The notes under the pieces are model-generated. The model had not been told where the DNA came from. It searched no databases and saw nothing but the letters and a program-made list of their open reading frames with translations. From the NCBI GenBank assembly GCA_016928395.1, contig JAFGKV010000004.1:1-47922 (forward strand): a stretch of 47,922 nucleotides of DNA, given 5' to 3'. This document shows positions 231 through 40,598 of the stretch, one piece after another (positions within the stretch are counted from its first letter, which is position 1; every line of letters starts with the position of its first letter). Position numbers and translations under genes: made by a program. Origin of the DNA: Candidatus Fermentibacterota bacterium (GTDB lineage Bacteria > JAFGKV01).

Positions 231-1043
231 ATGGGTATCACTCCGTTTCAGCGCGCCATATGCAGACTGATCGCTGCGAACAGAGCGCAGACCGATCAGG
301 CGTATGTGGCGGGTGGCGTTGCGCTGAATCTGCTTCTTGATGCGCCGCGGATATCCCTGGATATCGACCTCTTTCACGATACCGCTGAATCCCTGGCCAA
401 GACGTGGGACGAGGATCGGCGTCTTCTCACCGAACGCGGCTACGCCGTCGAGATCGTTCGGGAGCGCCCCTCTTTTGTCGAGGCCCTCGTCAGGAAGGGG
501 GGCGAAAGCGTCTTGATGCAGTGGACTCAGGACAGCGCCTATCGGTTCTTTCCCCTCCTCACGCACGACGATCTCGGGCTTACTCTCCATCCCTTCGACC
601 TCGCGACGAACAAGGTTCTTGCCTTGGCCGGCCGTTTGGAGCCCCGCGATTGGATTGACCTCATGGGCTGCCATCATGGCGTGCAGAGGCTTGGCTACCT
701 CGCCTGGGCTGCCTGCGGGAAGGATCCGGGATTCAGCCCTGAGGGAATCCTGAACGAGGCCAAGCGATCATCCCGCTATACCGCGGTGGAGATCGCGGAG
801 CTCTCCTTTGACGGTCCGCCACCCGATGTTGCCGCGCTGTCAGAAGAGTGGAAGTCGATGCTTTCTGAAGCCGAGGAGATCATCGGGCTGCTGCCCGTGG
901 ACACTGTCGGAACATGCGTCCTTGCGGCCGATGGGCAACTGTTTCGGGGCGGAGCCGACGAGGCTGCCCGCGCCCTTGCACGGGGCACGCTGCACTTCCA
1001 TCCAGGCAGCATACGGGGCGCGTTTCCCCGTATCGCGGCCTGA
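231..1043 (+). CDS. AbiEii/DUF1814-like nucleotidyltransferase (type IV TA toxin-like)
   Basis: Pol-beta-type motifs AGGVAL...RISLDIDLF, then 'NKVLAL' and 'RDWIDL'. Confidence 0.7.
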   Translation: MGITPFQRAICRLIAANRAQTDQAYVAGGVALNLLLDAPRISLDIDLFHDTAESLAKTWDEDRRLLTERGYAVEIVRERPSFVEALVRKGGESVLMQWTQDSAYRFFPLLTHDDLGLTLHPFDLATNKVLALAGRLEPRDWIDLMGCHHGVQRLGYLAWAACGKDPGFSPEGILNEAKRSSRYTAVEIAELSFDGPPPDVAALSEEWKSMLSEAEEIIGLLPVDTVGTCVLAADGQLFRGGADEAARALARGTLHFHPGSIRGAFPRIAA

Positions 1044-1127: not shown

Positions 1128-1796
1128 CTACTCGTGGATGATGCGCACTCGATCGGCGGCGACGCTGTCTCCGACGCAGCGGGTGAAGAGGTAGCGAGCT
1201 GTGTCTTCCTCGTTGAAAGGGCCTCGGTAGTTCCACCCAAGAGGCGTGGGGTTTCCCATCCGCGCCAGGGGCATTAATCCCTCTCCCCCGCCCCCGGGGG
1301 TCTCCCGCACCGGCGCAAGCCGGGCCGCGATGTCGGCGGCTAGCTCGGCCCGGCGAGCGCCCCGGGCGGCGCCATAGAGCTCGAAGGTCTCCTTTAGGCC
1401 GGCAAGAGGCGCTGCGGACGCCACCATGTGAATCGTCTCAACACCCGTATTGTCATCCAGCCTGAGCCACGGCAGCGATCTCAGGGTTTCGCCCTCTTGC
1501 TCTCCCCGAGACGCATGGAACAGGGAGTAGTCGCCGTTGGCCATCTGGATGATCACGTACACGAAGGTATCCAGCATCCTGTGCAGTATGATCCGGATCT
1601 GATCTCCGGAGTGCATGGCAACCCCGTCCTGCACCGCAAAGAGGCTGTCCTGCCGCGATGCGGTGCGGCCGACAATCCCATACTCAAAGGTAACCGGCCC
1701 GGATGCCATAGCCTGGGGCTGGCCAGCGGCCACGCCACAAGAGAGTGCGACTATCGTCACCAGGCACGCAACCCCCGCGCCGAGACGCGAGGTCAT
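1128..1796 (-). CDS. Secreted DUF4384-like protein
   Basis: N-terminal signal peptide; 'MHSGDQIRI...FVYVI...WLRLDDNTGVETIHMVAS' pattern typical of DUF4384; ATGA overlap with the anti-sigma stop. Confidence 0.65.
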   Translation of the reverse strand: MTSRLGAGVACLVTIVALSCGVAAGQPQAMASGPVTFEYGIVGRTASRQDSLFAVQDGVAMHSGDQIRIILHRMLDTFVYVIIQMANGDYSLFHASRGEQEGETLRSLPWLRLDDNTGVETIHMVASAAPLAGLKETFELYGAARGARRAELAADIAARLAPVRETPGGGGEGLMPLARMGNPTPLGWNYRGPFNEEDTARYLFTRCVGDSVAADRVRIIHE

Positions 1797-2539
1797 GGCG
1801 TCTCTTTCGAGGAAACAACCGGCGCGATACGGAAGAGAAACACGAACCGGTTCATGACCGCGCCGTCGCCTGGGCGCACCTCTTCGACATGGAGCTCATA
1901 GTCTCCCGGGGTGAAGAACGAGCTGTGGCATGCAATGGCGAACGTCCCATAGGGGCCGTGGCCTTGGAGGCCGGCGCCGCTCCACGCCACCGCGCCCCTT
2001 GCGTCGATGATACGCGCGCGGTGGTGTGTTTCCTCGTGCGCGCGGGAGACCACATTGAACTGAAGGAGGAACCGGCCCGCGTCCTTGGGGATGACAACCG
2101 AAGGCTCTTCGCCCCTCGTCCCCTCCTCCGCCACATAGGTCAGGAGTCCGGCGGACGGCATCCGAAGCGCATGAACCTCGTGCCTGAGGGCCGCGACCCG
2201 CACCCACCCCAACGTCGCCGGGATCCCCACGATCACCGCCGCCGCGGCGGCGGCCAGAATGGGCTTCCAGGCAGGAACCGGAAGAAGCCACTGGTGGAAC
2301 CGTTTCGCGGGAACACGGAGTCGCACGACAGACGCGGCCCGTGCGGGAAGGGGCGTGGGGTGCGCCACTTCTCTCTTGACGAAACGTTTGATCTGTGAGG
2401 TCTCCTCCAGCGCCTTGAAGCACTCATCACACTGGAAGTAGTGTGCTTCCCACTCCTGCTCCTCCTCCGGGGTCAGTTCATCCCGGAGGTAGCGTTCGAT
2501 GATCTCCAGGCGCGCGACGTCATCGTGGTCAATCACCAT
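1793..2539 (-). CDS. Membrane-anchored zinc-finger (zf-HC2/ZAS) anti-sigma factor
   Basis: 'IERYLRDEL...EAHYFQCDEC' (HxxxCxxC), one TM helix (ILAAAAAAVIVGIPATLGW), extracytoplasmic beta-rich C-terminal domain; SD AAGGA upstream. Confidence 0.85.
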   Translation of the reverse strand: MVIDHDDVARLEIIERYLRDELTPEEEQEWEAHYFQCDECFKALEETSQIKRFVKREVAHPTPLPARAASVVRLRVPAKRFHQWLLPVPAWKPILAAAAAAVIVGIPATLGWVRVAALRHEVHALRMPSAGLLTYVAEEGTRGEEPSVVIPKDAGRFLLQFNVVSRAHEETHHRARIIDARGAVAWSGAGLQGHGPYGTFAIACHSSFFTPGDYELHVEEVRPGDGAVMNRFVFLFRIAPVVSSKETP

Positions 2540-2730
2540 TGCCTGGTCCTTTCACGCCCCGTCCCCGGCCGGCGTCGCTCGCGGTTCCCCGCTTGCGGTT
2601 CACGATTCTCTCTCCTCCTCATCCATCCGTCTATCGTTCCCGATTCCCAACGGCTCGTCCTTCCAGGCCGCTCCCTCACCTACTATGTTCACGGTCCGCT
2701 TCATTCGTGACATGATGACGGGGAGTGAAC

Positions 2731-3288
2731 TCACCCGGTCTCCGTCAGGCCCTTCCGAAGAGCTGCCACGGCGCGACAGACCCGTTGCCGCACGGCGTCT
2801 TCCTTCAGATTGAGTTCGGCGGCGATCTTCCGGTAGCTCCATTCCTCGCCGAACCTCAAGACCAGGAGCCGTCGCTCCGCGTCTCCCATGGAGGCCATGA
2901 GGCGTCTCAGCCGCTCGTGGGCTTCCTTCTCCAGGTGGATCGCTTCGGGGTCTTCCTCTCTGCTGCGCAATGCCGCGGTGTCGCCCAGGGGAAGAGACCG
3001 CCGCGTGTGCTGCGTCCAGCGAGTGGTGAGATTCGAGCTGATCTTGTACACATACGCCCCCGCATTGCCGGTCTCCGTCAGGCGGCCTTCCCGTACCGCC
3101 AGCAAGAGCGCCACGAATACGTCCTGCTCCAGGTCTTGGGCCGCGGCATCGTCTCCCCGTAACCTGCGCAGGATGAAGAATCGAACTCGTCCCCGGTACC
3201 GCTCCCAGAGAGAGCGCTCCGCAGCCGTGTCGCCGGCCAGTATGCCGCGGATGAGTTCGGCATCGGTCGGTGCGGCCATAGGCGGCAT
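2731..3288 (-). CDS. ECF-type RNA polymerase sigma-70 factor
   Basis: 'DAELIRGILAGDTAA', 'AQDLEQDVF' (region 2), 'LLVLRFGEEWSYRKIAAEL...AVRQRVCRA' (region 4); ATG at 3288 is 1 nt after the CHAT stop (alternative start 3279). Confidence 0.9.
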   Translation of the reverse strand: MPPMAAPTDAELIRGILAGDTAAERSLWERYRGRVRFFILRRLRGDDAAAQDLEQDVFVALLLAVREGRLTETGNAGAYVYKISSNLTTRWTQHTRRSLPLGDTAALRSREEDPEAIHLEKEAHERLRRLMASMGDAERRLLVLRFGEEWSYRKIAAELNLKEDAVRQRVCRAVAALRKGLTETG

Positions 3289-3289
3289 C

Positions 3290-6200
3290 CTAATTCCGCC
3301 CGACCAGCACGAAGGGCGCCCAGTAGTAGGGATGCCGCAGGGCAGGAACCTCGCCATGAAGGAAAGAGAGTTTCGCCTGCCGTGCAGCCTCGGCCCTGGT
3401 GGCGCCGGATGCCAGCCCGCGGTAGAACTCTTTCATCCATTGCGCGGTGGATCGATCATTCACTGGCCAGAGACTGACCAGCACCGCCTGGCTGCCGGCG
3501 TGGAAGAATGCCCGCGCCAGGCTCACCATGCCCTCTCCCGGCACAGGTTCGCCCATGGCGCTCTCGCACGACGACAAAACCATGAAGGCGGGCGATGATG
3601 CCAGTTGGAGGATTTCATCGAGCACCAGCATTCCGTCGTCTCCCGGATCGGGCCCCGGGGTGAGGACGATGCAGGACCTCCGGGGCGCCTGCACGTCGAT
3701 GAGTGAATGCGTCGCGAAGTGCGCGATCCCATGGGGCCGCTGAAGCTCGCTGACCACGCGGCCTTCATTGGCCTCCCCTCCAATGAGCATGGTACAGCGC
3801 CCCGCGTCAAAGGATACGCACACGCTCTCAGCCTCGGCCTCGGCCCAGCGCAGCAGGGGAAGTGAGCGTGACGAAGGAGGAGAGAATCCCGAAACGGCGC
3901 TGGCGCCCCCGGGCCCTGCGGAGGGGGGGCGTGTCTCAGCCACTCCCCGCGAATCCCTGATGCCGACCGCCAGCACCGAGGGCTCGCCTCCACGATCTCC
4001 TTGCCGCCATAGGGCGAGAAGGCTCGTGGCCGATGGTGCGTACGACACCACATGGGTCTCGATCAGCAATGGCCTCGCGGAATCGGGCGCCGCGGGTAAT
4101 GCCTCGAAGGGGATCGCCAGCAGCGGGCCGTCGGGCACGATGCAGATGCGCAGCCCAGGAGAGGCTCCCAGACCGCCGGCAGGAAGAATCGTGGCCGCCA
4201 GCCTTTGCCCCTCCTCGTCACAGCGGGCGCCTAGGCGGGGAGATTGGGCCGTCTCAGCCAGGAGGCGGCCCACCATCTCGGCAACGCGAGCCCGGGAGGG
4301 TAGCCGGCGCATCGCCACGGAGTCGGGAGAGACTTCCCACAGAAACGACTGCCGCTCCCCCACAAAGTACTCCAAGAGCACCGCAACGCCGTGACGTCGC
4401 ATGGCTGCCTGAAAGGATCGACACGGATCAGCGAGTGTGGCCCATTCCGGCGACCCACAAGCCTCACCTCGCGCCCGCAGGCGGTTGAGTTCGTCTTCAC
4501 GGGCGGCCGCTTCGCGACGGAGTGAATCCGCCCGGGGAGAATCCCTGGCCTCGTGCCAGATCAGCCCGCTGAGCCGGCTGATCTCCCGAACCAGCGCGGC
4601 GCGGGACGAATGGCCATGGACCTCCCGCCCTCCTGCGGCGCCCAGAAGATCCAGGAATGAACGGGCCTTGGCCCGCTCCGCGGCGACGAAGGCGCGGTGT
4701 GAGAACCCGGCGGCGGGATCCTGTTCGTGGAGCACGGCCAGAAGCCCGACGAATCGCTCGTAGACCTCCATCTTGCTGGCGAGAAACCCGAAACGCCATT
4801 CCTGTACCGACAGCATCGCACGGGAGTCCTCGATGGCCACGGCCGCCGCGTCGTACATGGCCAGAGCCTTGCGCCAGTCGCCGGCGTCTTCGTGGCAGCG
4901 AGCCAGCCCATAGCGAGTGAACCAGACCAGCTCCGGCGCCTCGCTCATTGTCGCCTGCTGGAGGCTTTCGGCGAAAAGCGTCGCAGCCTCCACCGGTCGG
5001 CCCGCCCGCAGGGTCACTTCCCCCAATGCGGCTGAGGCCAGGGCCTGACCGTGCCGGTCGGCACACTCGGCGGCCACTGCCCGCGCGTTTTGTATGGTCT
5101 GTTCGGCCAGCGGCTGATCGTCGCCTCCCAGGGCCATCCCGGCATTCAGCAGGGCCGCGGCTGTGGATTTTCCGTCGCCCAGCCGCTCGAACAGGATGGC
5201 CGCCGCCAGGAAGTGCTCCCGTGCCTCGGCTCGTCGGGCCCGCCGAAACTCCAACCCGCCAAGCGAACCCCGAGCCGCGGCAACCGTGGCGGTATCGCGC
5301 AGTGTCGTCCCCACAACGAGGGCCCGCTGGACGGCATCCTCGGCCCGTGCATGATCGCCGATGGCCATATAGGCGTTCGCCAACCCGATGGATCCGGTCG
5401 CTATCCCCAGGGAATCTCCCAGTGTCTCGGCAAGGCTTACAGAGCGGTGGAAGAGGCCCAGCGCCCGGCCCGGCTCGCCGTGATCGAGCAGCACAGACCC
5501 CAGATTGGACGCCGTCGCGGCCTCTGCCGATTGGTGGCCGAGGGTCACATGGAGCGTTCGCGCATCCTCGTAGCGCGCGATGGCAAGATCGGGCCGGCCT
5601 CGCCGGGCGGCAATGCCTCCCAACGCGTCAAGACAGGCGGCCGGGCCTTCGGGATCGTGCACGAGGCGTAGCGCACGCATCGCCGTATCCAGTGTAGTTT
5701 CGGCGCCCGACAGATCACCGAGCCGCGCCAGCGCATCGCCTCGCAGCTTCAGCGCCCACCCCTGGGCTCGCCTGTCGCCCGCCCGCGCCGCGACCGTGGC
5801 GGCGATGGCGAGCATCGCCTCCGCGCCGGCCGCATCGCCCTGCAGAAGCCTGAGATACGCCAGTTCGCACCGAACAGGCGCCTCCAGATGGGGCAGGCCA
5901 TAACCGGTGCAGAGCTGTAGAGCCTCCAGGCCTGCCGCGGCGGCGCCGGCGGTATCGCCGAGGAGGCGGCGGACAATGCAGAGGGCATCCAGGCTGCGCA
6001 CGTGCAGCTCCGGATCGCTGGATGCCATGGCCAGGGACACGGCATGCTCGGTGTGGCGCAGGGCTTCCCCATAGCGCCCCATGCCGCGCACGGCGCGAGC
6101 CATCAGCAGGCAAGGCTCTCCCCAGTTGGGCGCCAGCGCCACGGCCTGTTCGGCGCAGGCCAGCGTGGAATCCCACGCGGCGGCTTCTGCCAGAAGGAGA

Positions 6201-6763
6201 CCACGGCCCAGCAGCCGGGTGGCGGCGTACGGTTGGTCACTACCCGCATTACGGGTCTCCGCGGCGATCTCGGGCAGCGCACCCCTCCGCCGGGCGGCTT
6301 CGGCGAGATAAGCCCAGCACAGGGCGTCGCCGGGATATGACGCGGTTACGGCGCGAAGATAGGCCAATGCCGCACTGTCGTCGCCTGACGCCAGCATGAC
6401 CACGCCGATGCCGTAGCGGGCTCTTGGGTGTGAGGGCACGGCGTGCAGGGTGTCCAGCCAGGCCGCCAGAAGCCGGGTTCTCTCCACGCTGTCACCCGCA
6501 GCCACGGCAACCCTGATAACGCGCCACGGCGCAGGATCCGCCACGAGTTCCTGGCGCAGAACTCCAGTGCCCGGCAGCGGGGGGTGCGCGTCGGTGGATA
6601 CCGACCGGCGTGCAGGCTCCGTCCCACAGCCGGTAAGCACGGCGACAATCAGTGCCAACGCCGCGGCCTGATACCCCGACCACGTGACGGCCCCATGCGG
6701 GCGCGCCTCTCTCGGGGGAGGGCAGGCGTCCCAGAGACCGGGTTCAACCAGTTCCATTCTCAT
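3290..6763 (-). CDS. TPR-repeat / CHAT (caspase-HetF-like) cysteine protease
   Basis: Long TPR array, 'AERAKARSFLD', 'IVPDGPLLAIPFEAL', catalytic dyad HFATH(S) (His ~3707-3709) and LSSCES (Cys ~3566-3568), 'SLWPVND', 'HPYYWAPF'; hydrophobic lipobox-like LIVAVLTGC near the N-terminus; start uncertain (6763/6757). Confidence 0.9.
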   Translation of the reverse strand: MRMELVEPGLWDACPPPREARPHGAVTWSGYQAAALALIVAVLTGCGTEPARRSVSTDAHPPLPGTGVLRQELVADPAPWRVIRVAVAAGDSVERTRLLAAWLDTLHAVPSHPRARYGIGVVMLASGDDSAALAYLRAVTASYPGDALCWAYLAEAARRRGALPEIAAETRNAGSDQPYAATRLLGRGLLLAEAAAWDSTLACAEQAVALAPNWGEPCLLMARAVRGMGRYGEALRHTEHAVSLAMASSDPELHVRSLDALCIVRRLLGDTAGAAAAGLEALQLCTGYGLPHLEAPVRCELAYLRLLQGDAAGAEAMLAIAATVAARAGDRRAQGWALKLRGDALARLGDLSGAETTLDTAMRALRLVHDPEGPAACLDALGGIAARRGRPDLAIARYEDARTLHVTLGHQSAEAATASNLGSVLLDHGEPGRALGLFHRSVSLAETLGDSLGIATGSIGLANAYMAIGDHARAEDAVQRALVVGTTLRDTATVAAARGSLGGLEFRRARRAEAREHFLAAAILFERLGDGKSTAAALLNAGMALGGDDQPLAEQTIQNARAVAAECADRHGQALASAALGEVTLRAGRPVEAATLFAESLQQATMSEAPELVWFTRYGLARCHEDAGDWRKALAMYDAAAVAIEDSRAMLSVQEWRFGFLASKMEVYERFVGLLAVLHEQDPAAGFSHRAFVAAERAKARSFLDLLGAAGGREVHGHSSRAALVREISRLSGLIWHEARDSPRADSLRREAAAREDELNRLRARGEACGSPEWATLADPCRSFQAAMRRHGVAVLLEYFVGERQSFLWEVSPDSVAMRRLPSRARVAEMVGRLLAETAQSPRLGARCDEEGQRLAATILPAGGLGASPGLRICIVPDGPLLAIPFEALPAAPDSARPLLIETHVVSYAPSATSLLALWRQGDRGGEPSVLAVGIRDSRGVAETRPPSAGPGGASAVSGFSPPSSRSLPLLRWAEAEAESVCVSFDAGRCTMLIGGEANEGRVVSELQRPHGIAHFATHSLIDVQAPRRSCIVLTPGPDPGDDGMLVLDEILQLASSPAFMVLSSCESAMGEPVPGEGMVSLARAFFHAGSQAVLVSLWPVNDRSTAQWMKEFYRGLASGATRAEAARQAKLSFLHGEVPALRHPYYWAPFVLVGRN

Positions 6764-7071
6764 CACACCCCTGACCTGGGGGCCGGGTGCTCCGGCGGGG
6801 GATGCCAATCGTCCTCTGACACATTGACACACTAGTGCCTCCCTGCGCCTGCGGCAAGAGCCGCCATCAATGCGGAACAACGGAAGGTTGGATCTTCTGA
6901 TGGATGGACGGCGGGAAGGAATGGGGGGCGTGGGGGCTGCTCTGTTGACGGTGAGCGGCGCTCTGCTCGCGAAGTGAGCCTCCTCCCTGGATGAATGGAC
7001 CGCGGCCTGTTATCATGGGCGTCAGTTCATCCTCGCTCTTCTCGACACAGCCTACATCCAGGAGTCTTCCC

Positions 7072-10000
7072 ATGGGCCGCCTCTCTCTGTTCGTCACCCT
7101 CGCCATTCTCGCCCATACCGCCTCTGCCGGCGACTATGCACCCGGCAGACTGGTAGTAAAGCTCGAACCCGCGGCGGCGTCACAGCTGCTTTCGGGTGGT
7201 GCGACCGGAAATGCGGCGCTGGATGACTACTTCGCTGCGCTGCGGCCGCGGCAGGTCCGCCGGCTGGCCGCTGCGCGCCGCGATGGGCGCAACGAGGCGC
7301 TCCGTCGCCGGTTCGGCTCGGATGGAGTACTTGCCTTCTCCTTCACGGGAGATCGCGATCCGGCCGCCGTAGCGGCAAAGCTGGCGGACATGCCCGGTGT
7401 GGTGTACGCCCATCCGGATTACTACGCCCGTATTGCCGCCGAGCCCAACGACCCCCTCTACCCCCACCAGTATGCCATGCCGCGCATGAGCATGCCCGCG
7501 GCCTGGGACATCGCCCGAGGGTCGGCCTCGGTCATCATCGGCATCAGCGATACCGGCACCGACTGGAACCATCCCGACCTGCGCGATATCATCCGGATCA
7601 ACCCGGCCGAGGATGTCAACGGCAATAGCGTATTCGACAACTTCCCGGCCGACTCGGGCGGCGATCTTGATGGCATCGATGCCGATGGCAACGGCTATGT
7701 GGACGACGTCATCGGCTGGGACTTCGTGACCGCCGACAATGTCGCCGAGGGGGAGGACGGCCTGCCACCGGACCCGGATCCCATGGACTTCGACGGCCAC
7801 GGCACGGCCACGGCCGGGATAGCCGGCGCGGCCACGGACAACGGAGTCTTCGTTGCCGGCACCTCGTGGGGCTGCACCATCATGCCGTTGAGAACCTTCT
7901 ATCGTCACCCTTCGGGCTCGGGCACGGCGGTCGCCTCCGACATCATCGAGGCGTTCTACTACGCGGCGGACAATGGGGTTGACGTGCTCTCCATGAGCTT
8001 CCGCAGCGGCGGCTCCGAGGGCCTCGAGGACGCCGCTCTCTATGCCCATGCCGCCGGGGTGTTTCTGGTGGCCTCGGCAGGCAATGAGGGCTCGGAGACT
8101 GCGCCCGCCCCGGCCGGATACCCGCAGGTCTTGGCAGTCGCGGCCACGCAGCAACAGGATCTGAAGGCGTCCTTCTCCAACTACGGAGCCTGGGTCGGCG
8201 TGTCGGCTCCGGGGGTAGACATCTGGACCACGGCCTTTGACGACACCTACATGGCAGACTTCGGCGGCACCTCAGCTTCGTGCCCCTATGTCGCGGGCAT
8301 GGCGGGCCTGCTCCTTTCCCACAATCCTTCGCTGACCAATGTAGACCTGTACTACCGGTTGGTGGGCACCGCCGATGAGATTGACTCCGTCAACCCCGAG
8401 TTTCGCGGCGCGTTGGGCTGCGGACGGCTGAACGGCTTCCGAGCCCTCACCGAATCGCCGCATCCAGCGCTGCGGCTCGTGGCCGTGCAGGTCGACGACA
8501 CCACCGGCGGCAACGGCGATGGGTTGTTGGGACCGGGCGAAACCGCCATCCTGTCCTTTGCCGTGCGCAACTACTGGGAAGACGCCCCAACCGTGGCGGG
8601 GGCGGTGCTCTCGGCGGATCCTCACATTACCGTGGATTCGACGTCTACAGTCATGTTCGGCCCAATTCCCACCGACAGCGTGGTCGCCTCGCCTGAAGGC
8701 ATCTGCGTCACGGTCTCCACCGATGCCGAGATCGGCTATCATGTGCCGTTCACCCTAAGGCTCACTTCGGGCGCCTACACCGAAGACGTGCTCTTCCATA
8801 TACCCATGGCAGCCCAAATGCTGATCGACGCGGCGGCCGACTTCGGGTTGTCCGGTGTGTCGGGCGGTATCACCGCGGTGTTCGCGGATTACGACGGTGA
8901 TGACGATCCCGATCTCTATCGTTCGGCGTGGAGCGGGACTCCTGCGTTGTACCGCAACGACGGTGATACCCTGATCGATGTCACCGCCTCCGCCGGCCTG
9001 CCGGTCTCGGGCCAGGGCCAAGGCGCCGCGTGGGGCGACTATGACAATGACGGCGACCCCGACCTCGCCCGGGGCACCGCCGCCGGATTAGCCCTGTTTC
9101 GCAATGACGATGGCGTCTTCACCGACGTGAGCGCCTCGGCGGGTTTTTCCTCTTCCTCGCCGCGCAACTTCGCACCCGTGTGGGGCGACTTCGATAATGA
9201 CGGCTGGCTGGACTTGTTCGTGACGCATCAGCAGCAGGTCAACCAACTCTTGTGCAACAATGGTGACGGCACCTTCACCGACGTTGCGAGCACGGCCGGA
9301 GTGGCGAGCGATTCGGTCTCGTACGGCGCATCGTGGGCCGATTTCGATCGCGACGGCGATCTGGACCTGTTCGTGGCCAATTACGGGTCTGTGTGGCAAG
9401 GGCAGGTGAACCAGTTCTATGTAAACCAGGGCGACGGCACCTTCCTGGAGTGCGCTGCCTCGCTGGGATTGGCTGATGAGGCCCTCATCTCCACAGGTGG
9501 CCTCTGGGGCGATTACGACGGCGACGGCTGGCTCGACCTGTACGTCACCAACAAGGGTTCGGCAGGCCAACCCAACCGCCTCTACAGGAACATCCAGGGA
9601 GCCGGGTTCGTGCGCCAGCCGCAGGCGGGGCTGGAGGATCCGCGCAGTTCCTCCAGCGCCGCCTGGGTCGATTTCGATGGCGATGGGCGGCTTGATCTCC
9701 TCGTGTCCAATACACAAGGAGGAGCTCTCTACCGGAATTTCGGCAGCACCTTTGGCGATGCCACCGAGAGCGCGCCCCTGGCCTTCAATGGGCTGGTAGC
9801 GGCTGTCGCCGATTTGGATGGTGATGGCGACGACGATATCTACGTGGGCAGTCCCGCCGGAGACCGGATCCTTCTCAACCTGTCCGATCCGGCCTCAGCC
9901 CTGCGAGTATGCCTGGAAGGGGCCCCTGGGCCGTGGGGAAGCCCGCGGGATGCCGCGGGTGCGCGAGTGACATTGGACGGCTGCCGGCGGGTCACCAGGA

Positions 10001-11199
10001 CGGTGCACGAGGGAAGCGCGTGGGGTCAGAGCAGCCCCATTCTCACCATGCCATGGCTGGGCGACGCCGAGAGCGCCATCGTGGAATGGCCGTCGGGGAC
10101 GATCCAGCGGGTGGATCTTGCTGGCCCGGGAATGCTCTCCATTGTCGAGGCCAGGCCCACCGTGGACCTCGCCCTGAGGGCCATGGGCCTTCCCTTGGCC
10201 ATCTCCCACGGCGAGTCGCGCCTCAAGGTCTGTGCTGCCGTGCAGGATAATGGCACCACCCCTTGTACCGGGAACGTCGTGACCCTTGCAGTTGCCGATG
10301 AAGGCGGCATCACCGTGTACACTGACTCGTTGAGCGCCGAAGACGCGCCGGGGCCGATCGCGGGCTTCGACGGGGTACCCGCGCCACCATCGGGTGCGAG
10401 CTACACGTACACCGTGACCGCGGTGGCTCTTGGCGATGAGGCCGCCTGGAACAATGAACAGATACAGATCGTCACCGGTGGCGAACCTCACGAAGACTTC
10501 GAGCTGCCGCCGGTCTACTGGGATCTGCCGTCATCGTGGCGATGGGCTCGCTCAAGTCCCGTTCATCCGGCCTTTGCTGGGGAAGGATTGCTTGTGCTGG
10601 AGGCATCCGAAGATGAGCCGGCCGCGCTCTCCCCGTTCTACCCGGTGACGACGGGCACCGTAGTGGCGGTGCGCTTCATGGGCTCGTGGAGCCTGGGAAG
10701 CGACTCGGTGGTGGTCACCGTCAGGCAGGTCGATCTGGACCTGGGCAGGCTGGTCTTGGGCGGCACGGCTCACTATTGGGGGCATCAAGTCCTGGAGTTC
10801 CAGGTTGCAGAACCCGGTGATATTCAGGTGGAGTGGCGCAGCGTGGCTGCCAACGGCGGCGACCCCGACGCGTTCTTCCGCGTAGATGATGTCGAGGTGG
10901 TTGTCGTGGCGTCCGGCCAGCCCGAGACCATGCCGACGGTGTTGTCGGTCTTTGGGCCCTGGCCGAATCCGACCCGGGGAACCCTGACGTGGAGTCTCAG
11001 TGTTCCCCGCGCCGCAACGGGACGCCTGGAGGCATATGATCTTCTGGGCCGTCGTGCCGTCGTGCATGACCTGGGCTTTCTGCCGTCTGGAACGCAGCGG
11101 GTGGTACTCAACACAGACAGGCTGGCGCCGGGCATCTACGTGGCGAGGTTCACTGTAGAGTCTTCAACGTGTGTCCGGCCTTTCGTACGGCTTCGATAG
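7072..11199 (+). CDS. Secreted S8 (subtilisin-like) serine protease with FG-GAP/ASPIC-like repeats and a T9SS/FlgD-like C-terminal domain
   Basis: SD AGGAG before ATG 7072; signal peptide; triad ISDTG / GHGT / GTSAS plus SAGN oxyanion motif; repeated 'WGDYDNDGxxDL' units; C-terminal 'PNP...YDLLGRR...LAPGIY'. Confidence 0.9.
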   Translation: MGRLSLFVTLAILAHTASAGDYAPGRLVVKLEPAAASQLLSGGATGNAALDDYFAALRPRQVRRLAAARRDGRNEALRRRFGSDGVLAFSFTGDRDPAAVAAKLADMPGVVYAHPDYYARIAAEPNDPLYPHQYAMPRMSMPAAWDIARGSASVIIGISDTGTDWNHPDLRDIIRINPAEDVNGNSVFDNFPADSGGDLDGIDADGNGYVDDVIGWDFVTADNVAEGEDGLPPDPDPMDFDGHGTATAGIAGAATDNGVFVAGTSWGCTIMPLRTFYRHPSGSGTAVASDIIEAFYYAADNGVDVLSMSFRSGGSEGLEDAALYAHAAGVFLVASAGNEGSETAPAPAGYPQVLAVAATQQQDLKASFSNYGAWVGVSAPGVDIWTTAFDDTYMADFGGTSASCPYVAGMAGLLLSHNPSLTNVDLYYRLVGTADEIDSVNPEFRGALGCGRLNGFRALTESPHPALRLVAVQVDDTTGGNGDGLLGPGETAILSFAVRNYWEDAPTVAGAVLSADPHITVDSTSTVMFGPIPTDSVVASPEGICVTVSTDAEIGYHVPFTLRLTSGAYTEDVLFHIPMAAQMLIDAAADFGLSGVSGGITAVFADYDGDDDPDLYRSAWSGTPALYRNDGDTLIDVTASAGLPVSGQGQGAAWGDYDNDGDPDLARGTAAGLALFRNDDGVFTDVSASAGFSSSSPRNFAPVWGDFDNDGWLDLFVTHQQQVNQLLCNNGDGTFTDVASTAGVASDSVSYGASWADFDRDGDLDLFVANYGSVWQGQVNQFYVNQGDGTFLECAASLGLADEALISTGGLWGDYDGDGWLDLYVTNKGSAGQPNRLYRNIQGAGFVRQPQAGLEDPRSSSSAAWVDFDGDGRLDLLVSNTQGGALYRNFGSTFGDATESAPLAFNGLVAAVADLDGDGDDDIYVGSPAGDRILLNLSDPASALRVCLEGAPGPWGSPRDAAGARVTLDGCRRVTRTVHEGSAWGQSSPILTMPWLGDAESAIVEWPSGTIQRVDLAGPGMLSIVEARPTVDLALRAMGLPLAISHGESRLKVCAAVQDNGTTPCTGNVVTLAVADEGGITVYTDSLSAEDAPGPIAGFDGVPAPPSGASYTYTVTAVALGDEAAWNNEQIQIVTGGEPHEDFELPPVYWDLPSSWRWARSSPVHPAFAGEGLLVLEASEDEPAALSPFYPVTTGTVVAVRFMGSWSLGSDSVVVTVRQVDLDLGRLVLGGTAHYWGHQVLEFQVAEPGDIQVEWRSVAANGGDPDAFFRVDDVEVVVVASGQPETMPTVLSVFGPWPNPTRGTLTWSLSVPRAATGRLEAYDLLGRRAVVHDLGFLPSGTQRVVLNTDRLAPGIYVARFTVESSTCVRPFVRLR

Positions 11200-11235
11200 C
11201 GGAATGCACCTCGTGGATTCGGGAAGGAGCACGAC

Positions 11236-12198
11236 ATGACTGAGGAGATCAAGGCAGCCTCGCTGGACACCGCGCGGTTCATCGAAGAACAGGTGGCTGA
11301 GATCAAAACCGCAGTGGGAGACGGCAGGGCGATCAATGCCCTGTCGGGCGGCATTGACTCATCGACGGTCACCATGCTGGGCCATCGGGCCCTGGGAGCC
11401 CGGTTGAAGACCGTATTCATCGACAACGGCCTGATGCGCCAGGACGAGCCCGCGCGGGTGGCGGCACTGTTCACGGCCTTGGGGGTCACGGTTGACGTGA
11501 TTGATGCCAGAACGGAGTTCTTCTCTGCCCTCAAGGGCATCACTGATCCGGAGGAGAAGCGGGAAGCCATCACCCAGGCATTCTACCGAGACGTCTTCGG
11601 CCGCATCGTACGCGACAGCGGCGCCACCTGTCTGCTCCAGGGCACCATCCTTACCGACATCGACGAGACCGTGGCCGGCATAAAACGCCAGCACAATGTG
11701 TTCGCACAACTGGGCATCGACCCCCAGGCCGCGTTTGGGTACCGAATCCTTGAGCCGCTGGTGCGGCTCCGCAAGGATGGGGTCAGGAAGTTGGGCAAGG
11801 CCTTGGGACTCCCGGACGAGCTGTTCCGGCGAATTCCATTCCCTGGTCCTGCCTTGGCGGCCCGGGTGATCGGCGAAGCGACGCCCGAACGTATCGAGAC
11901 CGTGCGCAAGGCCACGGTGGTGGTGGAGCGGCTGCTGAAGGACACGGAGGCATTTCAGTATCTGGCGATCCTGCATGAAGACCGGGTCACCGGGATGCGG
12001 AATGGGAGGCGGGATTTCGGACAGCAGATCGAGGTGCGATGCTGGGACAGTGTGGATGCCCGCACTGCTGCTCCCACCGCGCTATCCTTCGACAGGTTGC
12101 GCGTTCTGGCCGACGAGATCATCCGCGAGGTACCGGGCGTGGTCAGTGTGACCTGCAACATCGCCTCGAAGCCTCCCTCCACCATCGAGGCGGTATAG
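11236..12198 (+). CDS. GMP synthase ATP-pyrophosphatase subunit (subunit B type, no glutaminase domain)
   Basis: PP-loop 'ALSGGIDSS', 'DNGLMR', 'DPEEKR', 'LQGT', 'PFPGPALAAR', C-terminal 'KPPSTIE'; SD AAGGAG. Confidence 0.85.
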   Translation: MTEEIKAASLDTARFIEEQVAEIKTAVGDGRAINALSGGIDSSTVTMLGHRALGARLKTVFIDNGLMRQDEPARVAALFTALGVTVDVIDARTEFFSALKGITDPEEKREAITQAFYRDVFGRIVRDSGATCLLQGTILTDIDETVAGIKRQHNVFAQLGIDPQAAFGYRILEPLVRLRKDGVRKLGKALGLPDELFRRIPFPGPALAARVIGEATPERIETVRKATVVVERLLKDTEAFQYLAILHEDRVTGMRNGRRDFGQQIEVRCWDSVDARTAAPTALSFDRLRVLADEIIREVPGVVSVTCNIASKPPSTIEAV

Positions 12199-12329
12199 GG
12201 TTCTCGGCGGGAAGCGTGGGATCCGCAGCGACACGCCGGATTAGTGAGCCCGGCGGGAGGATTTGCCGTCCCGGCACGAGATCTGCTGAGTTGGTGTCAT
12301 CTGCCTCAGCCTGAACCGTGGAGGATTCC

Positions 12330-14846
12330 GTGCACCTGCGAATCATGAAGACCGGGATGATCGTCATGGCCGTAGTCAGCGTTGTGCTGGCCGGGCTCTA
12401 CCTCGTCCGCGACTTCACCAAAGTCGCCACCATGGTGCGCATGGGTGACATCTGGAGCATGGTGCAGCTCTCTGATGCGCCCTCGTCGGCGTTCATCGAA
12501 GTTGATCGCCGCGACTTCCCCGAACCCCCGTTTCCCGTTGCGGGTGACACCCTGCTCACCATTGATGGCAAAGCCGTCTCAGCCGAAACCTACTTCACGA
12601 TCTTCACCACCCACACTGCGCCGGGCTCCCGCCACGGCCTCACCTTCCTCCACGACGGCCAGGTATTCACCACGGACGCGGTCACCCGTGCCATTCCGTT
12701 GCCCCTGAAGATCCAGGTGGTGGCGCTTCACGTGCTCACCGTCGTGTTCACGCTCGGCCTTCTCGGTATTGGGATATGGGCCTATGCGACGAAGCCTTCG
12801 GCGGCGGCCGTTCGAGTCATGACGCTGCTGTGTCTCACCATGGCGCTCTCCAGTCTCATGTCACGCAGTGGCGTTGCCGGCGCCTACGCGACGTTCCAGC
12901 TCCCCCGGGTCGTGTTCAATCTCATCGGCGTCATCGGCCTCTTCTCCGGCGCCTTCTGGGTTCACCTCCAGTTGGTATTCCCTACCAAGGCATCGTGGTG
13001 TGCGGGTCATCGTGGCCAGGCACTCATCACGCTCTACGGACCCCTCGCGGCGTCATTGCTGCTGCGGTTGGCGCCGCCGCCGGTCCGCGAGCCTGCGATC
13101 CAGACCGTGGTCACCTCGTACTGGCTGCTCGGCTTCTTTCTTCTGAGCCGCAATCACCGCCAGGCCGCCAGTCTTCTCCAGCGCCGCCAGACAAGGCTCG
13201 TACTCTGGGGATCGGCCCCCGCAGTCTTGACGGGCCTGGCTATCGGCTGGAGCGGGGTCCTGGCGGGACCGTGGTTCAGGAGTCTCCCCTATGCCACGAA
13301 GCTCGCCGTGTTGAATGTCAACTCCCTGCTCCTGGTGTTCATTCCTCTCTCCGTGGGTTATGCCTTTGGCAAGTACCGGCTTCTTGAGGTGGAAACGAAG
13401 CTGAAACGCGGCACGAGGTTCCTGTTGACCACCGGGGCGACCGTCGTGCTGCTGCTGGCCGCCTGCGCTGTGCTCTATCTCGGCGCATCGCGTCTCTTCG
13501 CGCAACTGGGAGTAAGGGGTGAGTTCCCGCCCAACGCGGTGGCCGTCGTGCTGGCGCTGGGGTTTCTTCCGGCCCACTTCTCACTCCGCCGCTCCTTGGA
13601 GAACCGCATCTACCCCGAGCGCGCGCGACTGCATGCCATGCTGCAGGGCTTTCTGCAACAGCCGCACACAAGCCGATCCTTCTGGCTGGAGCTGGCACAG
13701 CAGCTCCGTGACGGCATAGGAGCCAGCGCCGTGTACCCGCTCCTGCGACGACGGGATGCGCTACCCTTCGCGGTCGAGTGCTGCGAACTGGCCCCGTTCC
13801 GTGCCGATGATCAGTTCAGTGAAGCCGTGCTCAAGGCTCGCCACCCCTTGCCGATGGATGAGATCGTCGCCAGCGGCCGCGTCCCTCTCACCGGCGATCA
13901 ACGGGAATGGCTTTCCCAGCGTGATGCGGCGTTGATCGTGCCCTTGGCAACCGTCTCAGGCCTCCGCGGCATTCTGGTGGTAAGTGCTCGTCTGGAGGGT
14001 GACGATTATGCTCCCGAGGAGCTGGAAATCCTGCGGGTGATGGCCACGCAGATCGCCTTGGTCGCCGAGACCATCGAGTTACTGGAAGAGCGGGTCGAGC
14101 GCCAACGTCTGCAGGAGGAGATCCGCCTCGCACGGCAGATCCAGGAGGGCCTGCTGCCCGGGAATCTGCCCGTCACGCCCGGGCTGGAGACAGCGGCGCA
14201 CATCCGCTTCAGCACTGACGTGGCTGGCGACTACTATGATGTGATTCCTCTCGATCGCGACAGAACGCTGGTGGCTGTAGGCGATGTGACCGGCAAGGGT
14301 ATGGGGGCTGCGCTCATCATGTCCAACCTGCAGGCTGCGCTGCGGGCCATCGGTGGGGTGGATCTCCCCCTGAGCCAGGCGGTGGGACAGATCAACTCGT
14401 TGATTCATGACAATACGCCCTCCGACCTGTTCATCACCGTGTTCGTGGCCGTCTACGACTCCCGCACGGGAGATCTCACCTACGTGAACGCGGGCCACGA
14501 CCCACCGATCGTGTGTACCGCCGGCGGTGAAATCCGGCGACTGCCCGCCACAGGCCTCCTGATCGGCGTGATCCGGGGCACGGCCTACCACGAACGGAGG
14601 GTTCATCTGAACCCCGGCGATCTCCTCTTCGTGTACACCGATGGGGCCAGCGAGGCTATGAATGACGATGAAGAGGAGTTCGGAGATGCCAGGCTCGCCG
14701 CTTTGGTGGCCGCGCACCGCGAGGCGCCCCTATCGAGGATGCTGGCGACTGTCGAAGAAGAGGTGAGGCGCTTCCACGGGGGCAGGCCCCTTCAGGACGA
14801 CGTGACCCTTCTCGCCGTCCGCCGCCTGCTGGAGACCACGCTGTAA
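12330..14846 (+). CDS. Multi-pass membrane PP2C/SpoIIE (RsbU-like) phosphatase with PDZ-like and GAF domains
   Basis: 'GDTLLTIDG' (PDZ-like), many TM helices, GAF ('LIVPL...GILVV'), PP2C motifs AGDYYD, GDVTGKG, YVNAGH, YTDG, DDVT; GTG 12330 follows GGAGG (alternative starts 12318/12345). Confidence 0.85.
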   Translation: MHLRIMKTGMIVMAVVSVVLAGLYLVRDFTKVATMVRMGDIWSMVQLSDAPSSAFIEVDRRDFPEPPFPVAGDTLLTIDGKAVSAETYFTIFTTHTAPGSRHGLTFLHDGQVFTTDAVTRAIPLPLKIQVVALHVLTVVFTLGLLGIGIWAYATKPSAAAVRVMTLLCLTMALSSLMSRSGVAGAYATFQLPRVVFNLIGVIGLFSGAFWVHLQLVFPTKASWCAGHRGQALITLYGPLAASLLLRLAPPPVREPAIQTVVTSYWLLGFFLLSRNHRQAASLLQRRQTRLVLWGSAPAVLTGLAIGWSGVLAGPWFRSLPYATKLAVLNVNSLLLVFIPLSVGYAFGKYRLLEVETKLKRGTRFLLTTGATVVLLLAACAVLYLGASRLFAQLGVRGEFPPNAVAVVLALGFLPAHFSLRRSLENRIYPERARLHAMLQGFLQQPHTSRSFWLELAQQLRDGIGASAVYPLLRRRDALPFAVECCELAPFRADDQFSEAVLKARHPLPMDEIVASGRVPLTGDQREWLSQRDAALIVPLATVSGLRGILVVSARLEGDDYAPEELEILRVMATQIALVAETIELLEERVERQRLQEEIRLARQIQEGLLPGNLPVTPGLETAAHIRFSTDVAGDYYDVIPLDRDRTLVAVGDVTGKGMGAALIMSNLQAALRAIGGVDLPLSQAVGQINSLIHDNTPSDLFITVFVAVYDSRTGDLTYVNAGHDPPIVCTAGGEIRRLPATGLLIGVIRGTAYHERRVHLNPGDLLFVYTDGASEAMNDDEEEFGDARLAALVAAHREAPLSRMLATVEEEVRRFHGGRPLQDDVTLLAVRRLLETTL

Positions 14847-16695: not shown

Positions 16696-16793
16696 ATCCT
16701 GGAATCGACCTGCAGGCCACATGGGGCCTCCCCAAAAGCAAACGGCCGGCTCCGTGCAAGGGGGCGATGCACGTGAATGAGTCGGCCGTAAGC

Positions 16794-16828
16794 AGAACAA
16801 TGGGCATCGCTTGTCGGGCGCGATGCCC
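16794..16828 (-). terminator. Terminator-like hairpin downstream of tRNA-fMet
   Basis: 9-bp perfect stem gggcatcgc/gcgatgccc followed by attgttct on the minus strand. Confidence 0.55.
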
Positions 16829-26801: not shown

Positions 26802-27455
26802 ATGAGCGTCGAGGTCGTGGTGAAAGTTGTTTCCACGATCGCATCACAGGTCGCCGACCTTGACGATCCACTGGCCACGGATGACACCACCAATGGGGAT
26901 CCCTACCGGGTTCTGATCTCCTGTGTCCTGAGCCAGCGAACGAAGGAGGAGGTTACCAGCGTCGCATCCAAACGTCTCTTCGCCCGCGCCTCAACTCCTG
27001 AGGAGATGATCGGGCTCTCGATCGAAGAGATCGGCGCGTTGATCTACCCGGTTGGATTTTGGAGGACCAAGGCCCGTCATGTGCGCGATCTGAGTATACG
27101 AATCAGAACTGACCATAACGGCAGGGTTCCCTCAACCATTGAGGATCTGCTCTCTCTTCCCGGTGTGGGAAGAAAAACCGCCAATCTGGTGCTCTCTTCA
27201 GGTTTCGGCCTTCCTGCCATCTGTGTGGACACCCACGTTCATCGCATCATGAATCGCCTGGGCTTTGTCGAGACTTCGTCACCGAATGAGACCGAATCCG
27301 CCCTGCGCCGGACTCTCCCACGTTCACTCTGGCTCGACATCAACTACCTCCTCGTGCTTTTTGGACGAAACGTATGCACACCCCTGTCACCAAAATGCTC
27401 TCGGTGCGTGGTGAGAGAGTACTGTCATCAGGTTGGAGTACTTCGGTTTCGTTAG
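26802..27455 (+). CDS. nth: Endonuclease III (HhH-GPD DNA glycosylase, 4Fe-4S)
   Basis: 'LSQRT', HhH 'LLSLPGVGRKTAN', 'VDTHVHR', C-x6-C-x2-C-x5-C cluster motif. Confidence 0.93.
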   Translation: MSVEVVVKVVSTIASQVADLDDPLATDDTTNGDPYRVLISCVLSQRTKEEVTSVASKRLFARASTPEEMIGLSIEEIGALIYPVGFWRTKARHVRDLSIRIRTDHNGRVPSTIEDLLSLPGVGRKTANLVLSSGFGLPAICVDTHVHRIMNRLGFVETSSPNETESALRRTLPRSLWLDINYLLVLFGRNVCTPLSPKCSRCVVREYCHQVGVLRFR

Positions 27456-27621
27456 ATTATTAATACTAGTAGTAGGCAGGATGGAACCTGTGAAGAACGC
27501 CTGAGGACTATGAATAGTAGAGAGTACTCTATTTCACAGCCTGTGAACAACATGTGGATAACACCGTTTGGGACGAAGGTAGGGCGGTTATCCACAGGCG
27601 ATCAACAGGGTAGTGTTCATA
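27456..27621. other. Probable chromosomal replication origin (oriC)
   Basis: AT-rich run with trios TAT-TAA-TAC-TAG-TAG-TAG (27458-27475); perfect DnaA boxes TGTGGATAA 27553-27561 and TTATCCACA 27588-27596; near-consensus boxes at 27489-27497 and 27542-27550; near dnaN; most large flanking housekeeping genes point away. Confidence 0.8.
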
Positions 27622-27666
27622 CGTACGCACGAGCGCGCAGTGACACGAACATGAAGCCTCGAACAC

Positions 27667-40582: not shown

Positions 40583-40598
40583 CCGCCATGGAGCCGTC

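Follow-up and report, generated by a model that had tools for sequence, protein, structure and literature searches.

A four-gene cluster in DNA of a Candidatus Fermentibacterota bacterium (contig JAFGKV010000004.1, positions 1 to 47,922; this whole 47,922-nt stretch is hereafter the window, and coordinates are positions in it unless another contig or locus is named) appears to encode a split sensor of the type exemplified by the Myxococcus xanthus protein DdvA, i.e., an extracytoplasmic caspase-like switch for a sigma factor of the extracytoplasmic function (ECF) type, a reading to which we assign a probability of roughly one half. The cluster encodes a protein with tetratricopeptide repeats (TPRs) and a caspase-fold CHAT domain, an ECF sigma factor, a zinc-type anti-sigma factor that spans the membrane once, and a small secreted protein, and it is faced by a divergent gene for a subtilase of family S8. 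That the CHAT, sigma, and anti-sigma genes work together is highly probable, and the CHAT enzyme could quite plausibly, if somewhat less than assuredly, be the site-1 protease for the anti-sigma factor. To our knowledge, the first cut of membrane anti-sigma factors is understood for only a few families, and we know of a caspase-fold enzyme having been proposed for a single, fused anti-sigma factor, DdvA, in which the cut is yet to be seen. Because the split system places the protease and its presumed substrate in two distinct proteins with soluble domains, the question becomes directly testable.

Organization of the Locus

The source genome (G000), a metagenome-assembled genome of 343 contigs, is one of three genomes of its GTDB phylum that were compared (G000, G001, and G002). 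Between positions 1128 and 6763 of the minus strand, the genes for the TPR-CHAT protein (1157 aa; 3290-6763), the ECF sigma factor (185 aa; 2731-3288), the anti-sigma factor (248 aa; 1793-2539), and a small secreted DUF4384-like protein (222 aa; 1128-1796) are arranged head to tail, and the S8 protease gene diverges from the CHAT gene, starting at position 6991 of the plus strand, such that the module and the S8 gene together span 1128-11199. The TAG stop codon of the CHAT gene is followed by one base and then by the ATG of the sigma gene, 191 nt separate the sigma and anti-sigma genes, and the anti-sigma stop codon overlaps the start of the 222-aa gene as ATGA. The genes are present as an earlier reading of this DNA (hereafter the original prediction) had described them: its five open reading frames (ORFs), four of them co-oriented and the S8 gene head-to-head, were recovered from the sequence, and the single-base gap and the ATGA overlap were both found at the junctions. 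Its statement that the window contains neither cas genes nor an array of clustered regularly interspaced short palindromic repeats (CRISPR) was likewise borne out, with no cas gene among the 28 further ORFs of the window (the search for Cas7-11 did not extend to the remaining contigs of the genome) and no tandem or CRISPR-like array in it. The remaining window is housekeeping DNA around dnaN, recF, gyrB, and gyrA, and PADLOC applied to the window returned an AbiEii-like gene along with generic TPR and subtilase models, and nothing else.

Correspondence With the Two Ends of DdvA

DdvA combines a zinc-type anti-sigma domain, one membrane helix, and a periplasmic TPR-CHAT part within a single 991-aa chain, and the authors who described it put forward, as an unproven proposal, that its CHAT domain is a site-1 protease acting ahead of RseP (PMC11506125). 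When a profile of 28 sigma-linked CHAT domains was compared with the PDB, the best match was DdvA residues 834-976 (8ROT, which is DdvA-DdvS, and 8RW5; E 1.1e-7), followed by type III-E Csx29 chains (3.2e-7 to 3.6e-5) and separase (approximately 1e-3). The profile of the anti-sigma family, in turn, found DdvA residues 7-149 as its best match (E 1.4e-8) and then the nuclear magnetic resonance structure of the DdvA N-terminus (8RLZ; 2.5e-6). Since two separate genes match the two ends of one solved protein, the locus is, as judged from these profile matches, a split DdvA-like system rather than an analog of Craspase, the type III-E CRISPR protease. The choice of query mattered in this regard: single-sequence PDB searches returned only TPR matches for the whole CHAT protein and none for the CHAT part alone, and a full-length profile was swamped by TPR proteins, whereas the CHAT-only profile succeeded.

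The TPR-CHAT Protein

Counted from the first ATG (the gene-caller version, P0003, begins two codons downstream), the CHAT protein consists of an N-terminal region, approximately 600 aa of TPRs, among which Pfam recognizes eight TPR_12 stretches, and a C-terminal caspase-fold CHAT domain (approximately residues 830-1157). The last of these matches Pfam CHAT (PF12770) over profile positions 6-289 of 289 with 185.4 bits against a cut-off of 24 (E 2.1e-54), and 368 homologs of the protein were found at E<=1e-3. The His/Cys dyad, described as intact in the original prediction, comprises His1019 (codon 3707-3709, minus strand) and Cys1066 (codon 3566-3568, minus strand), residues that align with the catalytic dyad region of DdvA and are invariant in two alignments, namely in 28/28 full-length homologs and in 28/28 sigma-linked CHAT domains. 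The latter invariance shows that catalysis matters in the sigma-linked context.

Equally pertinent is the N-terminus, where a hydrophobic signal or anchor (residues 31-46; 6626-6673, minus strand) ends in a lipobox-like L-T-G-C at Cys46. In the G001 ortholog (49% identical), both the hydrophobic stretch and the Cys are retained, and by a crude measure 45 of 58 CHAT homologs have a hydrophobic segment within their first 80 residues. The protein is accordingly predicted to be exported or membrane-anchored, not cytoplasmic, in which case its site of action would be the periplasm and its target the ectodomain of the anti-sigma factor. Both genomes of the genus also encode a second exported CHAT protein, of approximately 1000 aa (G000 contig C333, 472-3465, plus strand; G001 contig C3), and no sigma gene is visible alongside it on these short contigs.

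The Sigma and Anti-Sigma Factors

The sigma factor matches Sigma70_r2, r4_2, and r4 above the Pfam cut-offs as well as TIGR02937 (2.6e-22), and its top PDB matches are generic ECF sigma factors. Its neighbor had been described as a zf-HC2-type anti-sigma factor, an assignment that the zinc motif H33-x3-C37-x2-C40 and the DdvA match substantiate even though the zf-HC2 score of 18.8 bits falls below the Pfam cut-off of 22.2 and the match to the NCBIfam family "anti-sigma factor" (6.9e-8) likewise lies under the family cut-off. An AlphaFold2 model built from a 29-row family alignment (mean predicted local distance difference test score, pLDDT, 80.4) has a three-helix cytoplasmic domain (residues 7-59), a single long membrane helix (93-124), and a periplasmic beta-sandwich (131-239; pLDDT mostly >90). 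Taken together with the predicted export of the CHAT protein, this topology would bring the CHAT domain and the ectodomain together on the periplasmic side.

The ectodomain belongs to the conserved anti-sigma family, as the matches of the CHAT-linked ORFs run along the whole model, from approximately position 5 to 258 of 263 in the profile; no Pfam family covers it. Foldseek of the model against the PDB gave only generic immunoglobulin-like and cupredoxin-like sandwiches (phage baseplate, CopC, PmoD; best E 3.4e-5). No relationship of the ectodomain to DUF4384 was detected, hhalign of the anti-sigma family against the DUF4384-like family giving a probability of 0.2%. In one CHAT-linked anti-sigma factor (L037, 10674-11831, minus strand), the ectodomain has a weak match to DUF928 (E 0.003), a family whose genes may, in cyanobacteria, have CHAT and CHASE2 genes as neighbors. 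An Arg with a Gly or Ser directly after it occurs in the first ectodomain loop of 21 of the 29 family members; the corresponding share for windows of that length elsewhere in these proteins is 28%, which makes R142/G143 a weak lead to a possible cleavage site. The genome also encodes an RseP-type M50 protease (187.7 bits), an enzyme present in most bacteria.

Within the gap between the sigma and anti-sigma genes, a block of approximately 45 nt (2674-2692, minus strand; 16776-16796, plus strand, in the corresponding G001 locus, L005) is nearly identical in G000 and G001, although the flanking proteins of the two genomes are only about 60% identical. The block lies 135 nt from the anti-sigma start in one genome and 59 nt in the other. 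No counterpart turned up in the other 85 loci, and the block is possibly an internal promoter or RNA element.

Predicted Docking of CHAT on the Ectodomain

A complex was predicted from CHAT residues 300-1157 and anti-sigma residues 125-248, each supplied with its own unpaired family alignment. Three runs scored 0.66, 0.66, and 0.67, compared with 0.00 for the best of three controls; among 157 solved complexes, 116 attained this mark, and so did 2 among 215 mismatched pairs, counts that are only a rough guide here given the custom alignments. At least 79% of the contacts are common to the runs, and the partner has a pLDDT of at least 78. On the CHAT side, the contacts comprise 840-846, 969-972, 1102-1108 (which includes the invariant Asp1103), and 1138-1147 (the loop before the last strand), and on the anti-sigma side they include the first ectodomain loop, 134-147. 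Given the topology of the caspase fold, CHAT 1102-1108 and 1138-1147 are presumably loops bordering the substrate groove. Recall of a known structure is an unlikely source of the prediction, because there is no similar solved complex and because the region of DdvA beside its CHAT domain is helical, not a beta-sandwich. On the strength of this model, the CHAT protein and the anti-sigma factor probably bind. The pairing of a CHAT protease with the anti-sigma factor in the original prediction is supported, in that the invariant dyad and the complex score make a CHAT protein capable of proteolysis the most probable partner of the anti-sigma factor.

Conservation of the CHAT, Sigma, and Anti-Sigma Trio

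The same four genes in the same order are found in the sister species G001, where the encoded proteins are 49% (CHAT), 60% (sigma), 59% (anti-sigma), and 55% (fourth gene, which is cut by the contig end) identical to those of the window. For a wider survey, an alignment of 28 full-length homologs was used to retrieve CHAT relatives from genome contigs, which contain at least 586 of them; the 80 best were taken, and their loci were searched as six-frame ORFs with profiles iterated from the window's own proteins. A sigma-like ORF occurs within 2 kb of the CHAT ORF in 37 of the 80 loci, an anti-sigma-like ORF (a full-length family homolog) within 1 kb in 32, and one or the other in 38. A Pfam check of the 37 sigma-like ORFs found sigma-70 region 2 or 4 at E<=1e-5 in 25 and at 1.3e-5 to 1.1e-3 in 7 more (32 supported in total), and zf-HC2 was matched (E<=0.01) by 21 of 36 anti-sigma-like ORFs. 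Chance adjacency of CHAT and sigma genes was considered and ruled out by the density of sigma-like ORFs in the same 80 loci, which is 12.9 per 100 kb inside the 2-kb flanks as opposed to 1.4 outside them (9-fold).

The arrangement of the trio varies. By hand count, the CHAT gene precedes the sigma and anti-sigma genes, as in the window, in 10 of the 37 loci, follows sigma and anti-sigma in 9, is convergent with them in 15, and is divergent in 3; adjacency that outlasts rearrangement points to a functional link rather than to a shared transcript. Going by record titles, Acidobacteriota is the commonest taxon, and Ignavibacteriota, Bacteroidota, Zixibacteria, a Woeseiaceae bin, and others are also represented (the bin labels Eubacteriales, Heliobacteriaceae, and Bathyarchaeia look unreliable). 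In a tree of 78 CHAT domains, obtained by a quick search with Shimodaira-Hasegawa-like approximate likelihood ratio test (SH-aLRT) support only, the sigma-linked CHATs are spread across the whole tree. A Bacteroidota clade of eight CHATs (SH-aLRT 98; L034, L035, L036, L040, L047, L048, L061, and L076) has neither a sigma nor a kinase gene in its flanks. The trio is thus conserved across phyla, and the pairing is common in Acidobacteriota and several other phyla and is not a myxobacterial curiosity. The proposal in the original prediction of a CRISPR-independent cluster acting as a functional unit withstood this cross-genome test in both the sister genome and the 80 CHAT loci, and the co-occurrence that it had anticipated was recovered for the CHAT, sigma, and anti-sigma genes but not for the S8 protease (1/80).

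The DUF4384-Like Protein and Other CHAT Contexts

The 222-aa protein has a signal peptide and no Pfam match, even at E<=10, so the label "DUF4384-like" that it had been given does not stand on the window protein itself and appears to hold only indirectly, through its family. A word-index search found one homolog and exhaustive HMMER found 158 at E<=1e-3, mostly of 200-240 aa; DUF4384 (PF14326) is matched by 31 of 60 aligned family members (best 2.9e-14), and a profile of Pfam-validated DUF4384 ORFs adjoining CHAT genes recognizes the 222-aa protein at 6.5e-10. Its AlphaFold2 model (pLDDT 81.8; predicted template modeling score 0.75) contains a beta-sandwich (35-127), a helical hairpin, a disordered loop (167-191), and two C-terminal strands, and Foldseek of the model against the PDB gave nothing below 1e-3, the only matches being generic immunoglobulin-like or cupredoxin-like sandwiches. 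In eight loci with the same gene order, no gene is conserved after the anti-sigma gene, which indicates that the DUF4384-like fourth gene is lineage-specific in that position.

DUF4384 proteins recur beside other CHAT genes. In 14 of the 80 loci, a secreted protein of approximately 300 aa lies directly beside the CHAT gene, mostly upstream, and all four that were scanned with Pfam match DUF4384; in 13 of these 14 loci it is preceded by a protein of 600-710 aa. Among eight of these large ORFs that were scanned, all have a protein-kinase domain and six have DUF4384 at E<=1e-3, and in the one whose whole sequence was inspected a hydrophobic stretch separates the two domains. None of the 14 loci contains a sigma gene. 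The resulting operons, in the order Ser/Thr kinase-membrane segment-DUF4384 protein, secreted DUF4384 protein, and exported TPR-CHAT protein, were observed in Pyrinomonadaceae and Blastocatellia (L030, L038, L041, L043, L046, L050, L060, L063, L065, L069, L073, L080, and L085, and also L044), with L041 carrying a second kinase and DUF4384 pair on the opposite strand. The kinase-linked CHATs form one clade of 17 rows (support 100) that is nested among sigma-linked CHATs.

When the five proteins most closely related to the 222-aa protein served to scan metagenomes, two loci were recovered. L088 (735-7505) encodes, in this order, a relative of the 222-aa protein, a CHASE2 adenylate/guanylate cyclase, and a 1347-aa TPR-CHAT protein, and no paper mentioning both CHASE2 and the CHAT domain was found in the literature; in L089, a zinc anti-sigma factor (zf-HC2 3.3e-6) has a DUF4384 ectodomain (4.8e-12). 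The transducers found beside CHATs are thus ECF anti-sigma factors (37/80 loci), Ser/Thr kinases with an outer DUF4384 domain (13-14/80), and the CHASE2 cyclase of L088, and the window joins the common sigma/anti-sigma context with a DUF4384 accessory otherwise found with kinase- and cyclase-linked CHATs. The 222-aa protein might serve as a substrate, decoy, inhibitor, or adaptor of the protease. More speculatively, and on balance we would not bet on it, exported TPR-CHATs may be widespread, undescribed extracytoplasmic partners, probably site-1 proteases, of several single-pass transducers, with small beta-sandwiches such as DUF4384 as the recognition or substrate element, an arrangement that would recur in Csx30 of type III-E CRISPR systems, and with DdvA as one derived, fused form of an older split system. 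The kinase and cyclase contexts would extend the remit of bacterial caspase relatives beyond cell death and CRISPR defense, to ordinary transmembrane signaling.

Proposed Mechanism and Alternatives

In the split DdvA-type sensor, the TPR-CHAT protein would be exported or else tethered to the inner membrane on its outer face, and its CHAT domain would dock on the beta-sandwich ectodomain of the zinc anti-sigma factor, which would hold the sigma factor inside the cell. A signal sensed by the TPR array would turn on the His1019/Cys1066 dyad, upon which the CHAT enzyme would cut the ectodomain or the juxtamembrane part of the anti-sigma factor (site-1 cleavage) and an RseP-type intramembrane protease would complete the cleavage and free the sigma factor. 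The secreted DUF4384-like protein would act as an accessory of the protease in one of the capacities listed above.

Several observations weigh against this reading. The catalytic residues are not among the named contacts of the predicted complex, the score of which is a measure of model confidence obtained from unpaired custom alignments, and the G001 ortholog of the CHAT protein lacks a canonical lipobox. A search among longer proteins recovered no member of this anti-sigma family fused to a CHAT domain, which is weak evidence. Within the survey, 5 of the 37 sigma-like ORFs are without Pfam support and 28 of the 80 loci, by subtraction, have neither a sigma nor a kinase context, some of them perhaps because they are cut by contig ends. 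The module is accessory, as G002 (98% complete; same family) has neither the anti-sigma gene nor any CHAT gene, and no promoter or regulon could be defined, the regions upstream of CHAT and S8 in G000 and G001 having no conserved promoter-like block. For DdvA itself, the H862A and C907A variants are reported to resemble the wild type at rest, and no autoproteolysis was detected on phage infection (PMC11506125).

The indifference of resting DdvA to loss of its dyad would also suit a different arrangement, in which the CHAT protein is a co-sensor or shield that occupies the ectodomain, in the manner of RseB on RseA, and keeps a different site-1 protease from acting, with signal-induced release of the CHAT protein starting the cascade and its own proteolysis being aimed elsewhere, for instance at the DUF4384-like protein or at incoming foreign proteins. 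The predicted docking, a stable domain-domain interface without catalytic residues, is what such a shield would present, and DUF4384 proteins accompany CHATs even where there is no anti-sigma factor (14/80 loci; L088). Fused DdvA, however, has no separate protease to be shielded against, the dyad is invariant in all 28 sigma-linked CHATs, and the contact loops would border the presumed substrate groove, and we regard a shield as unlikely. A somewhat longer shot is that the CHAT protein is an output and not an input, the sigma and anti-sigma factors answering some other envelope signal and driving CHAT, and perhaps the S8 and DUF4384-like proteins, as effectors of envelope stress, defense, or cell death. 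ECF sigma factors commonly autoregulate their own operon and its neighbors, and the CHAT gene does lie downstream of sigma and anti-sigma, in one direction, in 9 of 37 loci; against this, the convergent and divergent loci (15/37 and 3/37, respectively) show that co-transcription is not the conserved feature, the anti-sigma ectodomain family co-varies with CHAT presence and is predicted to dock on CHAT, and both halves match one fused protein, DdvA.

The original prediction had taken Craspase as its frame, and a cytoplasmic TPR-CHAT protein that cuts the cytoplasmic part of the anti-sigma factor and so frees the sigma factor, as Csx29 cuts Csx30, would be the corresponding mechanism. Csx29 chains are indeed the next-best PDB matches after DdvA, and a preprint assigns one group of Csx30 C-terminal domains to DUF4384, a domain often fused to proteases (10.1101/2022.08.17.504292). 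The frame nevertheless proved wrong, and we give a cytoplasmic cut very little credence: the hydrophobic N-terminal anchor or signal is present in the window protein, in its G001 ortholog, and in 45 of 58 homologs, the window has no cas gene or array, DdvA with its periplasmic CHAT domain matches better, and the partner docked with high confidence is a periplasmic ectodomain. Compatible with any of these readings would be a place in the pathway for the S8/FG-GAP protease as an upstream activator or a regulon output, as the original prediction had also envisaged. The protein (1402 aa; 6991-11199, plus strand) is a secreted subtilase with Peptidase_S8 (1.2e-43; 150 bits against a cut-off of 21.8) and FG-GAP_3 (5.5e-49) matches and a weak tail of the type IX secretion system type, below the cut-off. 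Its gene is head-to-head with CHAT here, a 74% identical ortholog lies on the same contig as the module in G001, the conserved context of the actinobacterial ECF54 group contains subtilases and TPR-CHATs (PMC7826278 supplement; PMC8999054), and L032 has an S8 gene next to its sigma gene. Yet L032 is the only one of the 80 related loci with the S8 catalytic domain (two other first-pass matches are FG-GAP repeats only), approximately 10 kb intervene in G001, a full-length, 53% identical paralog on another contig of the same genome (C178) has no CHAT gene alongside, and no shared promoter motif was found between the upstream regions of CHAT and S8. The intervening DNA in G001 (L005) encodes a 1696-aa Ser/Thr kinase/TPR/GAF/sigma-54 activator AAA+/HTH_8 protein (2973-8063, minus strand) and a further ECF sigma factor (10705-11475). 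Linkage of the S8 gene to the module is therefore limited to the genus, the evidence for its membership is weak, and we consider its participation doubtful.

Other Features of the Window

Outside the module, the intergenic gap at 27455-27667 is a probable chromosomal replication origin. It holds two perfect 9-mer matches to the DnaA-box consensus (27553-27561 and 27588-27596), 27 nt apart and in opposite orientation, it has the lowest G+C content of the window (0.565) and the cumulative GC-skew minimum, and it lies approximately 2 kb from dnaN-recF-gyrB-gyrA; no dnaA gene was seen next to dnaN, and boxes with at most one mismatch are not above chance.

Just beyond the module, an AbiEii-like nucleotidyltransferase of a type IV toxin-antitoxin family is encoded at 231-1043 (plus strand), with only its N-terminal 60-70 residues matching (Pfam 2.2e-9; PADLOC 1.7e-5). 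On the other side of the S8 gene lie, on the plus strand, a stand-alone 320-aa protein with a PP-loop N-terminus and a GMP-synthase C-terminal domain, lacking the glutamine amidotransferase part (11236-12198), and an 842-aa protein with a long hydrophobic N-terminal part, weak GAF matches, and a SpoIIE/PP2C phosphatase domain (12318-14846). Two neighboring radical-SAM/SPASM genes (39491-41630, plus strand) stand amid sugar transferase, glycosyltransferase, and sulfatase genes, and the region may be a peptide- or polysaccharide-modification cluster.

Comparison With Known Systems

The principle of a CHAT domain acting as a site-1 protease was already proposed in 2024 for fused DdvA; the split form, its breadth across phyla, and the kinase and cyclase contexts are, as far as searches show, apparently unpublished. 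No description of a separate exported CHAT protein paired with a sigma/anti-sigma system was found in the literature, an absence that is uncertain because the supplement of Casas-Pastor et al. 2021 (PMC7826278) was covered in part. DdvA-DdvS is the nearest precedent, sharing with the window an adjoining ECF sigma factor, a zinc N-terminal anti-sigma domain, one membrane helix, and a TPR-CHAT part with a His-Cys dyad that is periplasmic in DdvA and predicted to be so here. DdvA, however, is one dimerizing 991-aa chain, whereas in the window the protease and anti-sigma factor are separate, with the sigma gene between theirs, and so do not form one polypeptide; moreover, the anti-sigma factor here has its own beta-sandwich ectodomain, and a secreted DUF4384-like protein is added. 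Fused forms were found only in Myxococcota and one Comamonas by the authors who described DdvA (PMC11506125), in contrast to the split form, which occurs in Acidobacteriota, Ignavibacteriota, Bacteroidota, and other phyla. DdvA controls a cyclic oligonucleotide-based antiphage signaling system (CBASS)/CRISPR island, while the AbiEii-like gene is the only defense neighbor here; CBASS/CRISPR-type neighbors accompany only a subset of DdvA-like pairs (Table S7 of PMC11506125).

Type III-E Craspase (Cas7-11/gRAMP, Csx29, Csx30, Csx31, and RpoE) resembles the module in tying a TPR-CHAT protein to an ECF sigma factor via a sigma-holding protein, and the CHAT profile matches Csx29 significantly in the PDB. 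Craspase is cytoplasmic, is activated by RNA via Cas7-11, and is encoded with a CRISPR array, unlike the CHAT protein described here, which is predicted to be exported and which lies in a window without cas genes or an array. In the ECF54 group of Actinobacteria (Huang et al. 2015, as cited), the sigma factor neighborhood likewise holds a TPR-CHAT protein and a subtilase in a conserved context, for which proteolytic control has been proposed (PMC7826278 supplement; PMC8999054). The group as described there is restricted to Actinobacteria, lacks an anti-sigma factor, and carries a carboxypeptidase-regulatory-like protein at +1 (PMC7826278 supplement); the module differs from this described context in having a zinc anti-sigma factor at +1, in belonging to a non-actinobacterial phylum, and in a subtilase link confined to the genus.

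Finally, the module invites comparison with classical regulated intramembrane proteolysis. The classical anti-sigma systems of this kind are RseA/DegS/RseP, RsiV, and the autoproteolytic RsgI. With these the module shares a single-pass anti-sigma factor, the periplasmic domain of which, once removed, would license an M50 site-2 protease, and an M50 protease is present in the genome. What would set the module apart is its site-1 enzyme, proposed here to be a caspase-fold cysteine protease with a TPR sensor instead of a serine protease, a signal peptidase, or a self-cleaving domain.

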